From Thermodesulfobacteriota bacterium (GTDB lineage: Bacteria > Desulfobacterota_D > UBA1144 > Nemesobacterales > Mycalebacteriaceae): DNA of 64,000 nucleotides. Below, piece after piece: positions 49,383 through 52,880 of this stretch. The first letter of the stretch is position 1, and every line of letters starts with the position of its first letter. Where the stretch lies: NCBI GenBank assembly GCA_965198945.1, contig CBDAQI010000011.1, positions 45,364 to 109,363 on the forward strand. The letters run 5' to 3'. The notes beneath the pieces are model-generated. The model saw nothing but the letters and a program-made list of their open reading frames with translations. It made no database searches and had not been told where the DNA came from. Made by a program: the position numbers and the translations under genes.

Positions 49383-49402
49383 CATTGAGGGAGAAAGGAG
49401 AA

Positions 49403-50182
49403 ATGATTGGAGATTTTGTTAAGAAGCAACGTCTGAAAAGAGATATAACCCAGGCTGAAGTTGCTTTGAGGCTTGGGATTTCAAGACCGACGTATATACA
49501 GATTGAACTCGGTGGGCGTGATATAACAGTTCCAGAAGTGAAAAAACTTGCGGAGTTGTTTGATATGTCTCCAGAAGATTTTATCAATGAGACCGAACCT
49601 GCGGTTCCCAAAGTCATTCTTGAGAAAGGGGATTTGATGGAAAAAGCCGTTGAAGAGAACAGTCTTGAAATTCGTGTTCCGCGGCAGGATTTGGAAAAAT
49701 TAGAACAGGTTCTTTTGTATGTTCTCACAAAAGTTGGCGGAAAGCCAAATGTTGGTGAGACGGTTTTGCACAAACTTCTTTACTTCATTGATTTTGACTA
49801 CTACGAGAAGTTTGAAGAAAACCTTATGGGATTGACTTACATCAAGAATCACCACGGTCCCACATCAGTTGAGTTGGGCGAAGTCATTAAAAAAATGATA
49901 AAAGACGAGGAAGTTCAGTCCTTAAAAGTAAAACGTTTCAATTATGTGCAGAAAAAATATCTTGCTATCAACGAACCCGACTTAAAACTTCTTTCAGCTC
50001 AGGAACTTTTGCATATTGACGATGTGTTGAATCGCCTTTCGGATAAGAGCGCCGGTGAGATTGAAGAGTATTCGCACGGCGATATACCGTGGATAGTTGC
50101 AAAAGAGGGGAAGCAGATTTCATATGAGGCGGTTTTTTACCGGGAAGACCCTTACTCGGTTAGGGCCTACGATGAACTTTGA
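49403..50182 (+). CDS. XRE-HTH + DUF4065 (Panacea/SocA-like) antitoxin
   Basis: N-terminal HTH; KLLYFIDF..Y, Y....HGP, SH.D.PW DUF4065 motifs. Confidence 0.85.
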   Translation: MIGDFVKKQRLKRDITQAEVALRLGISRPTYIQIELGGRDITVPEVKKLAELFDMSPEDFINETEPAVPKVILEKGDLMEKAVEENSLEIRVPRQDLEKLEQVLLYVLTKVGGKPNVGETVLHKLLYFIDFDYYEKFEENLMGLTYIKNHHGPTSVELGEVIKKMIKDEEVQSLKVKRFNYVQKKYLAINEPDLKLLSAQELLHIDDVLNRLSDKSAGEIEEYSHGDIPWIVAKEGKQISYEAVFYREDPYSVRAYDEL

Positions 50183-50546
50183 GGAGTTGCCGGAGTTTCA
50201 AAGGGATTTCAGAAACCTTGTAAACAAATACAAAACACTACCGGAAGATATGGAGCAGTTTCGTGAGATTGTTTTAGAATTTCCGCTTGGCGGCAAAAAA
50301 CATTCCGGCATCCTTACCGGTTCAGACCGTTTCAGCATAATCAAAGCCCGTCTGTCTTGCCGATACCTCAAGGGCTCGTCTCTGCGTATTATCTACGCTT
50401 ACTGTAAAACAAAAAATCGCATTGATTTTATTGAGATATATTTCAAGGGTAATAAGCAAAGGGAAGATAAAAGAAGAATAGGGAGTTATCTGGGTCAATG
50501 TTCCCGTTTTGCCGCGGCGGGTTGCAAATCCTTCAAAGGTAAATAA
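50172..50546 (+). CDS. RelE/HigB-like toxin
   Basis: EFQRDFRNL.NKY.TL..D, LRIIY, FIEIYFKG; overlaps the antitoxin stop codon. Confidence 0.75.
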   Translation: MNFEELPEFQRDFRNLVNKYKTLPEDMEQFREIVLEFPLGGKKHSGILTGSDRFSIIKARLSCRYLKGSSLRIIYAYCKTKNRIDFIEIYFKGNKQREDKRRIGSYLGQCSRFAAAGCKSFKGK

Positions 50547-50551
50547 CACTG

Positions 50552-51732
50552 ATGAGACTCAAAACAGTTTTTCTGTCACTGGCTGTATTTTTTACGCTTG
50601 CTTCCTTCGCCTCCGCCGAAGATGCTTCAGATGTTTTTGAGAAGGCGTCCCGTTCGGTTGTGGTTGTCTATGTTTACGACGAAAACGGCGAAAACACCGC
50701 GCACGGCAGTGGGGTTATTATTGGGAAAGGGGAAATTGTTACAAACTGTCATGTTATAGAAAACAGCGAACAGATAACCGTCAACACCGAAGAAGGCGAC
50801 CCGAAAACTGCAACTGTTTTCCGTACGGATTGGGAAAAAGATGTTTGTTTGCTGAAAGTTCCCGCATTGAAAGGCAAAAAGGCGAAAATCCGTCCAGCTA
50901 ATTCGCTGAAAATCGGCGAATCCGTTTACGCAATCGGCTCTCCCGAAGGAATGGATTAAAGTTTAAGCGCGGGACTGGTCTCTCAACTGCGCAGAGATAA
51001 AAAAGACGCTCCGCCGATTCGATTATTCAGACTGATGCTTCGGTATCGTCCGGTTCTTCGGGCGGCGGGCTTTTTGACAGAAAGGGAAATCTTGTTGGAA
51101 TTACATCTTTTGTTTTGAAAGAAGCGCAGAATATAGCGTTTGCGTCTCCGTCCGAATGGATAGAGGAAACCCGTGCTAGTGGAATTGAGACGGATTTAAC
51201 AACAAGCCAGGAGACACTGATTGCCGGTTTTCGTTCTTTGTTGATATTGATAGAGTCGTATCGTAAGGTTTTGCGAATCAATCCTGAAGATGCGGAAGCT
51301 TGGAGTATTCTTGGAGCTGTTTATTCAGAGCAGGACAGATATGAGGAAGCGGTAGATTCATATCGTAAGGCTTTACGAATCGATCCTGATTTAGATGAAG
51401 CATGGAATGGCCTTGGTGTTGTTTATTGGGAGCAAGGCAAGCATGAGGAGGCGATAGATTCTTACCGTGAGGCATTGCGAATCAATCCTGAGTATGCGAA
51501 AGTGTGGTATAACCTTGGGGTTACTTATGCGGATCAAGGCAAGTCTGAGGAAGCGATAGACTCATTTCGTAAGGCATTGCGAATCAACCCTGAATATGCA
51601 AGAGCATGGGGCGGTTTGGCTATTGCTTATAAGGCAAATCGTCAGGATGCTTATGCAAAAGAGGCATTTGAGCGGTTGCAAAAGCTAAACTCCTCTTTGG
51701 CGCTTAAAATTAGAAGTTTTATTTTTGATTAG
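50552..51732 (+). pseudogene. Exported trypsin-like serine protease-TPR fusion, disrupted
   Basis: TNCHV, DVCLL and SGSSGG triad; in-frame TAA at 50957 and a 5-bp duplication CGATT at 51015-51024; about 4 TPRs downstream. Confidence 0.88.
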
Positions 51733-51761: not shown

Positions 51762-51833
51762 ATGAAATACTTCTTTAGTTCATTACCTCTACTGTTACGA
51801 TAGGGGTAAGCTGGCTTCGACGTGCCTGCAAAA
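51762..51833 (+). repeat. Degenerate copy of tmRNA promoter and 5' end
   Basis: tgaaata..ttcattac..atagggg..ctggcttcgacgt matches 52489-52562 (13 bp exact core). Confidence 0.75.
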
Positions 51834-51865
51834 GGAGTATTCTTGATTTTGTTTAGAGGATGTAA

Positions 51866-52421
51866 ATGGTAGAAAAAAAGAAGTCTATATCAGCAAGGGA
51901 AAGTTTGTTGAGGTCTATTGCTATGGTGTCATCTATGGCAATAGGAATTTATATACTTCATGCATTCTTGGCTCTTGTCTACTACACTCTTTTCTATGTG
52001 GATGGATTATCTGCAACTAACAACTCTAACATTGGGACTGAACAAAATAAGTATCTTTTCTATGTGGATGGATTATCTGCAACTAACAACCCCTTTTTAC
52101 CAAATACTCTTGGTCCACAAAACTTTCCTTGGGTTCGTCTTCTAACTTTGAGTTGTGGACTTTGGTTTGGTTGGCGTTATGTTGGTATGCCAATTAGAGG
52201 TGATGCCTATCACAACACTGTGTTCTATCTCTTGGGCGTTACGCTTGGTGTGGTAACTGCTGTATTGTTGTTTAGTTTACTTTCCACAGTTCATAGGAAT
52301 AGGGTTTCTTACTTTAGTTGCTACTTTACTTGGCGAAGCAATTTTTGTTCTCTTGGTTTACAAGTTGGTTGTTTTTATAAAAGGTAGAACAAAGGATCCG
52401 ATGACCATGGGGATGCAATAG
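51866..52421 (+). pseudogene. AT-rich hypothetical membrane protein with internal duplication and probable frameshift
   Basis: ORF 51866-52387 with LFYVDGLSATNN twice; the hydrophobic C-terminus continues in the +1 frame to TAG 52421. Confidence 0.55.
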
Positions 52422-52488
52422 TTGTTGATAAGAAAGATTGGTAGGAAGAGATTAAAAAGCAGAACTAATGAACAGAGACCACTCCTTC

Positions 52489-52517
52489 TTGAAATAACCC
52501 TTTCAATTCATTACTAT
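52489..52517 (+). promoter_or_regulatory. tmRNA promoter
   Basis: TTGAAA-N17-TACTAT, 13 nt upstream of the mature 5' end. Confidence 0.65.
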
Positions 52518-52530
52518 TCCTATCCCAATA

Positions 52531-52880
52531 GGGGGCGAACTGGCTTCGACGTATCTGAAGACAGCTCATGCCGCATGCCGAGCTTGGCTAACTCGTTAAA
52601 CTGACCTCTCGCTATAACTGGCAAACCAATTAACGCACTCGCGGCCTAATTAACGCTGCGACGCTTCACGGGGCAATGCCTGCGGGCTTTGTGAAGCGGC
52701 ATCCAGCAGGCTGGTCTGTTTGCGACGCCCGATGCGCAAGCGGATGAGAAACCCATCGGGACAGCGGAAAAAGCGCCCGCCCGCCGGCAACTTTTTCCGT
52801 CAAAAATCGGCGGGATAAGCATGTAGAAGCTGAGTGATTCTCTTTTGCGGACGCGGGTTCAATTCCCGCCGCCTCCACCA
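52531..52880 (+). ncRNA. ssrA: tmRNA; tag peptide (A)GKPINALAA
   Basis: 5' GGGGGCG..TTCGAC, resume context ATAACT-GGC, tag ORF 52620-52649 ending LAA-TAA, 3' GGTTCAATTCCCGCCGCCTCCACCA. Confidence 0.97.

Follow-up and report, generated by a model that had tools for sequence, protein, structure and literature searches.

The SXT/R391 elements, which encode an integrase and excise, insert at prfC by replacing the 5′ end of the gene. The same plan is followed by the dusA-specific islands with their DAI integrases, for which the available part of the report describes replacement of the 5′ end of the gene, the old start becoming the island's outer limit (PMC4482086). In the Islander collection, 159 of 3919 tDNA islands are recorded with a displaced 5′ fragment, and the accessible portion of that source gives an integrase and a size of 2 kb as requirements for an island to be called (PMC4383910). 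At ssrA, the islands of Dehalococcoides are described, in the excerpted text of the study, as targeting the 3′ end of the gene, with a 20-bp direct repeat of that end downstream, and as recurring in arrays across strains (PMC3146451). Insertions of another kind are left by the CRISPR adaptation machinery: off-target (‘neo-CRISPR’) spacer integration was demonstrated in E. coli, alongside natural examples of a circumstantial kind (Nivala, Shipman and Church 2018, as relayed in passages of 10.1101/148544 and PMC6698737), and a ruler fixes the repeat length at 36 bp in a type II system, according to the portion of that report at hand (PMC6895254).

Here we analysed a window of 64,000 nucleotides (the whole stretch of DNA under study) from a Thermodesulfobacteriota genome, referred to as G000, in which the tmRNA gene ssrA is preceded by a second, decayed copy of its promoter and 5′ end. 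The locus is a real, old, decayed and single scar of known kinds, with the following features.

51115 to 51732, + strand: the 3′ portion, with the TPR region, of a disrupted trypsin-protease/TPR gene that was the upstream neighbour of ssrA in the ancestral arrangement (Pfam TPR matches; synteny with congener G003)
51762 to 51828, + strand: the upstream copy, in decay, of the promoter and the first 27 nt of ssrA, at the ancestral junction (alignment); its parts are the −35 remnant (51762-51767), the −10 remnant (51784-51789), the 5′ fragment (51802-51828) and a 13-nt core (51811-51823)
51829 to 52488, + strand: inserted segment of 660 bp, 37% G+C, missing at this site in five congeners
51855 to 51860, + strand: Shine-Dalgarno-like AGAGGA, 5 nt ahead of the cargo ATG (sequence)
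51866 to 52387, + strand: cargo ORF, annotated at 173 aa, an orphan membrane protein and probably a pseudogene
51989 to 52024, + strand: the first of two copies of a duplicated 36-nt target (37 nt repeat exactly, from 51988), seen as a 37-nt unitig of about double depth
52025 to 52054, + strand: 30-nt spacer-like insert
52055 to 52090, + strand: the other copy of the 36-nt target, which at its far end agrees with the end of the CRISPR repeat in 9 of 11 bases
52263 to 52421, + strand: hydrophobic tail of 52 codons in another frame, which is likely to have been the last membrane helix originally (translation and hydropathy)
52489 to 52530, + strand: working ssrA promoter of genus-native type, TTGAAA-17-TACTAT (motif elements at 52489-52517)
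52531 to 52880, + strand: intact tmRNA gene (ssrA) with the tag GKPINALAA (ARAGORN, Rfam)

The two promoter-bearing segments lie where a sequence-only reading had placed them, and their likeness is significant. The homology proved slightly shorter than the limits of 51762-51833 and 52489-52562 given there: in a gapped alignment of 51762-51828 with 52489-52557, 48 of 69 columns were identical. The promoter and 5′ end of ssrA scored 57 in local alignment with the upstream copy, whereas the 2 kb upstream, put through 1000 dinucleotide shuffles, gave a mean of 25.8 and a maximum of 42, with no shuffle reaching 57, and the next-best place for the same query in the 1.39-Mb genome scored 47. The 13-mer CTGGCTTCGACGT occurs exactly twice genome-wide, at 51811 and 52540. 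The copies are spaced by approximately 730 bp on the same strand with one small gene between them, and this gene had rightly been called AT-rich, the intervening DNA having a G+C content of 37% against approximately 48% for the genome. A mere chance likeness would be in keeping with an alignment of this modest identity that needs gaps, but it is exceedingly improbable given the complete failure of the shuffles, the 10-point margin over the best other genomic place, and the shared strand, close spacing and syntenic position of the pair.

An assembly artefact is an unlikely source of the duplicate, since both copies and the 37-nt repeat are present in public contigs, perhaps of the source sample. 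Specifically, in the contigs of runs X1 and X3, which may represent that sample, each copy was recovered through overlapping pieces, with no piece spanning both. Upstream of the −35 element, no significant extension of homology between the two copies was detected. Two further candidate traces were set aside. A possible remnant of the ssrA 3′ end at 50501-50531 was not accepted: 6 of 200 shuffles equalled its score, and the window was only one among many tested. Complementarity between the 3′ strand of the tmRNA and the bases that follow the upstream copy was rejected (p = 0.62).

The comparison set for the family consisted of five other genomes, all of the same genus (G001 to G005), and each of the five carries the 13-mer in a single copy. 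The stop codon of the protease-TPR gene lies 25 bp before the −35 element of ssrA in G003, and the stop of the same gene in G000 lies 29 bp before the upstream copy. In both G003 and G005, the end of the TPR gene, or its remnant in G005, leads directly into the ssrA promoter. The position of the upstream copy at this ancestral junction, together with the single copy in the congeners, indicates that the 660-bp stretch is an insertion and that the upstream copy marks the former promoter position. The relatives thus show an empty site, with a single copy in all five and synteny of the junction in two of them; no larger or alternative fill of the ssrA-start site was found among these relatives. 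The upstream neighbours of ssrA differ within the genus, being smpB directly in G002 and G004, a TPR remnant in G005, TPR and protease-TPR genes in G003, and a 2863-codon frame on the opposite strand in G001. The interval between smpB and ssrA also gains and loses genes without repeats of the kind described here, an example being a toxin-antitoxin-like pair that is missing in G003.

Several other observations were made around ssrA in this genus. The trypsin-like protease/TPR gene of G000 (50552-51732) is broken by a stop at 50957-50959 and by further frame changes, and its counterpart in G003 is also in two frames. At 49385-50546, between genes that are adjacent in G003, lies a segment of 41% G+C with an HTH and Panacea/SocA antitoxin gene and a small downstream gene (phrog_5869); no flanking repeats were seen around this insertion. 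A 151-nt contig of run X4 matches the end of the TPR gene (51696-51730) at 30 of 35 positions and then diverges, perhaps representing a different junction in a relative and perhaps by chance. Just past ssrA in G005 (L035:4470-4945), where the gene has no encoded terminal CCA, there are approximately 3.5 copies of a unit of approximately 105 nt that is absent from the other congeners. The 2863-codon frame of G001 (L031:3649-12240) has a signal-peptide-like start and is divergent from ssrA, and smpB does not occur there within 12 kb upstream.

We compared the two promoter copies with the promoters of the congeners. All six working promoters contain TTGAAAT and TAnnnT separated by 16–17 bp. The working promoter of G000 was nearest to the native promoter of G003, with 34 of 42 positions in common, the top pair among the seven. 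At the columns where the working copy differs from a given congener, the upstream copy sided with the working copy by 16:2, 7:0, 5:1, 12:1 and 5:2 for the five congeners, although the splits against G003 (5:1, p = 0.11) and G005 (5:2, p = 0.23) are not significant alone. Two private columns are common to both G000 copies, and the upstream copy also shares two with G001 and one with G005. Since the upstream copy sides with the working copy against every congener, the most likely ancestor of both is the promoter of this lineage itself. The proposal that the incoming DNA supplied a foreign replacement promoter finds no support in this pattern, in which the working promoter is closest to the native one of G003 and both copies are of the lineage type. 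An element could have captured its promoter and start from this lineage.

The upstream copy is altered at 8 of the 37 columns that are invariant in the six working copies, and T1 of the −35 and T6 of the −10 element, both invariant in those copies, are lost from it. The ssrA part carries 6 changes in 27 bases, all of them transitions. The divergence of this fragment is approximately 0.29 substitutions per site, while fourfold sites of G000 and G003, which two branches separate, give 0.74. This clock, a rough one from 27 bases, argues for an old event; the changes in the upstream copy read as neutral decay over a long time. Because the conserved −35 and −10 bases are lost, the upstream copy probably does not drive the cargo. 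It was also absent from the list produced by a promoter scan, and the suggestion that the cargo is now expressed from the old tmRNA promoter is thus disfavoured on both counts.

The cargo encodes membrane-like segments and has a GC3 of 0.32. Its hydrophobic tail, of 52 codons with a hydropathy of up to 2.2, continues in another frame, suggesting a frameshift near 52260-52300, and the gene is probably a pseudogene. No relatives of the cargo were found in protein collections, the only other match in one search being a 43-residue stretch of a 2155-aa protein; 118 of the 119 other genomes of the phylum gave no match and one gave a weak match of 27 residues; and Pfam and PHROGs gave none. The only family matched was TrgA (NCBIfam NF033773), and weakly so: the scores were 19.9 to 21.8 bits where the cut-off is 40, with a best E of 1.6e-4. 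The residues after the repeat aligned to positions 28-88 of the 145 in this profile, to which the alternative-frame tail gave no match. The cargo resembles TrgA family proteins in having several membrane helices, but differs from them in falling below the family cut-off and in having no homologue by sequence search.

Inside the cargo, an exact 37-nt repeat recurs with a period of 66 around 29 unique nt, an arrangement that can equally be read as 36-30-36. The CRISPR locus of G000 (C12:98057-102835) contains five 36-nt repeats and 30-nt spacers beside cas1, which scored above the cut-off at C12:98931-99620, a likely cas2, which is an adjoining 112-codon frame read as such from its position and sequence, and cas9. 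From the gene set and the repeat, we take this system to be type II-C. Its array holds only two distinct spacers, each present twice and alternating; cas9 is split over three frames in G000 and is one 1065-codon frame in G003. One of the array spacers (C12:98159-98188) ends in a G-run motif resembling the first bases of ssrA, probably by chance, and has no genomic match within 9 mismatches.

A scan of G000 for repeat-unique-repeat arrangements at periods of 50–89 (40 tested) gave hits only at period 66, three in total: the array, the cargo and an ATP-dependent DNA ligase gene. The ligase gene (C6:9209-9310) carries a 36-30-36 in-frame insertion in the OB domain, and its insert matches a chromosomal protospacer at C1:54057 at 30 of 30 positions. 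The target is single in the three congener ligases listed, of five loci, and the gene also has an in-frame stop upstream of the insertion. The cargo target matched the end of the CRISPR repeat at 9 of 11 bases, a level found in 0.05% of random 36-mers, and the repeat overall at 16 of 36; the ligase target was a weaker match. As to the source of the cargo spacer, no match within 9 mismatches was found elsewhere in the genome and no exact match in viral contigs, and the best phage match was 25 of 28 (E 0.05).

Ordinary slippage or a duplication-deletion event unrelated to CRISPR would accord with the lack of a protospacer for the cargo spacer, with an overall identity to the CRISPR repeat that 1.9% of random 36-mers reach, and with G003, which has cas1 and yet shows no such scar outside its array in 1.16 Mb. 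Such an origin is nevertheless very improbable, as the only period of the 40 to give hits is that of the array, the agreement at the repeat end is rare, and the ligase gene provides a twin event with a perfect self-derived spacer. The cargo repeat very probably arose through off-target integration by Cas1-Cas2. Spacer integration leaves the ssrA duplicate unaccounted for: at 67–69 bp, not 36, that duplicate has twice the length of the repeat, and Cas1-Cas2 was rejected as its maker. Both spacer events are in genes that look broken for other reasons, suggesting that 66-bp in-frame insertions persist mainly under relaxed selection.

We then searched for an agent of integration. No integrase or other element gene was found in or near the insert. 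PF00589 was matched twice in G000, twice in four of the five congeners and three times in G002, the two shared tyrosine-recombinase matches being presumably XerC and XerD. The comparison of the locus to an attL/attR scar therefore holds for the insertion at the ssrA start and for the displaced promoter and 5′ fragment, but not for an integrase origin, there being none nearby and the PF00589 count being that of the congeners. Exact-match scans, in which diverged ends would be missed, gave six matches to the 5′ end in viral contigs, none within a tmRNA gene, and one locus with this 5′ end, in single copy, in metagenome contigs. Genome contigs, scanned without flanks, gave three. The larger integrase-bearing elements with the same ends that the sequence-only reading had envisaged were found neither in the viral and metagenome contigs nor as an alternative fill among the relatives.

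In a pattern search for 5′ duplicates across 120 genomes of the phylum (114 matched; ten multi-hit genomes were re-run), which would miss a more decayed copy, no other close same-strand pair was present among the matches listed, with 78 matches outside these. When the promoter and 5′ end were aligned to the upstream flanks (251 to 12,371 bp) of 46 loci, two of them from G000, the maximum outside G000 was 46. This match was gappy, lay approximately 1.1 kb upstream in a G+C-rich locus and was not accepted as a second case. Multiple tmRNA genes were observed in a few genomes: the three matches of G083 are three whole ssrA genes on three contigs (L050, L051 and L052) with flanks 89–98% identical, probably a strain mixture in the assembly, and G017 (L036) and G025 (L037) each have a second, divergent tmRNA-like gene, which may be contamination or a mobile copy. 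Among the low-depth public contigs listed, there was no joint skipping the insert that would indicate an excised circle. A literature search returned no description of an ssrA 5′ duplicate that includes the promoter; such a search cannot express 5′ and most subscription papers fall outside it, so novelty is not shown.

Taken together, there is in our judgement an even chance that the locus is the scar of a single old insertion, by which DNA with a small membrane-protein gene and a lineage-type ssrA promoter and start recombined into the start of ssrA. The incoming DNA would have carried that one gene and a copy of this lineage's ssrA promoter and start, and recombination would have taken place in the first ~27 bases of ssrA. 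A complete promoter and gene would thereby have been rebuilt downstream, and the displaced upstream copy would then have decayed. A single crossover within the sequence common to both, in an attB/attP-like geometry, is the likely route; its agent has not been preserved, and what came in was possibly larger and has shrunk since. Later, the cargo would have lost its function and the host type II-C Cas1-Cas2 would likely have inserted the 30-nt spacer, duplicating 36 bp in frame, an order and an agent that we infer. Only with the promoter and 5′ end restored would an insertion at the start of ssrA persist, and hence the layout alone is no proof of site-specific machinery. The locus behaves like a 5′-end integration scar; the status of an integrase island is not established for it. 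A more far-reaching version, which we consider unlikely, is that the locus is the shrunken remnant of an undescribed family of integrative elements. These would target the ssrA start just past the conserved GGCTTCGAC motif and bring with them a promoter and 5′ end captured from the host; the cargo, as neutral ground for insertion, would afterwards have kept the record of a natural off-target integration of a type II-C spacer. Such elements would be the mirror image of the usual 3′-end ssrA islands.

An origin with neither a circle nor targeting is a credible, if tentative, alternative. A template switch near ssrA +27 would have copied foreign DNA and returned approximately 70 bp upstream, or a short local duplication would later have been split by gene gain, and selection for an intact ssrA would have kept the product. 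Such an origin would agree with two copies of this lineage's promoter type, with the lack of an integrase, with a single case among the loci examined and with the turnover of genes without such repeats between smpB and ssrA, and a local duplication without a circle predicts identical sequence. It leaves less well accounted for that the match ends just past the conserved GGCTTCGAC motif, in a class of RNA genes favoured by integrases according to the available text of PMC4383910, and that the cargo comes with its own ribosome-binding site and fits neatly into the interval. As only one genome is concerned and selection for a working ssrA forces the layout, a crossover and a local template switch or duplication are not separable. 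It is improbable that the upstream copy was kept on purpose, with the old promoter transcribing the cargo and the 13-nt core being a maintained recombination or regulatory site. The core is exact in both copies, and the cargo is co-oriented, starts 37 bp after the copy and has a ribosome-binding site, all of which would suit such a role; but when 6 changes are placed at random in 27 bases, 7% of the placements leave an unchanged run of at least 13, the invariant −35 and −10 bases are lost, and the cargo is probably frameshifted.

An old insertion into the start of ssrA, the reading we prefer, would make this locus an example of how the gene can survive insertion at its start through duplication of its promoter and 5′ end. 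Intact elements with this end, if they exist, would represent a new integrase target site, and a class that is missed by island finders which insist on an integrase, a size of 2 kb or a 3′ fragment. The spacer scar in the cargo would be the second natural type II-C off-target event in this genome.

With respect to the described systems, the arrangement had been considered atypical beside the 3′-end targeting of ssrA, and a 5′-fragment layout is indeed rare but known, as in the 159 Islander cases given in the accessible portion of that source (PMC4383910). As in those islands, the inserted DNA separates the intact gene from a 5′ fragment that stands upstream of it on the same strand; compared with the islands as described in that text, the present locus has no integrase, measures 0.66 kb and is thus below the 2-kb limit, has a decayed fragment, and includes the whole promoter in the duplicate. 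With the Dehalococcoides islands it shares the ssrA target, and some of those islands also have no integration module in the excerpted account; unlike them, it has the duplicate of the 5′ end, upstream of the gene (PMC3146451). The dusA and prfC elements encode an integrase and excise, whereas here we find a near-native promoter copy, an RNA gene as target and no excision machinery; the insertion in the 5′ end of a gene, with the old start as the outer limit and a new start and promoter restoring that gene, is common to those elements and to this locus. Finally, the scar in the cargo differs from the E. coli neo-CRISPR events, as these are outlined in the available passages, in being natural, of type II-C and in frame in dispensable genes of a genome with cas9 in three pieces, and it agrees with them in having a spacer-sized insert between two repeat-length copies of ordinary DNA, with partial likeness to the repeat end.
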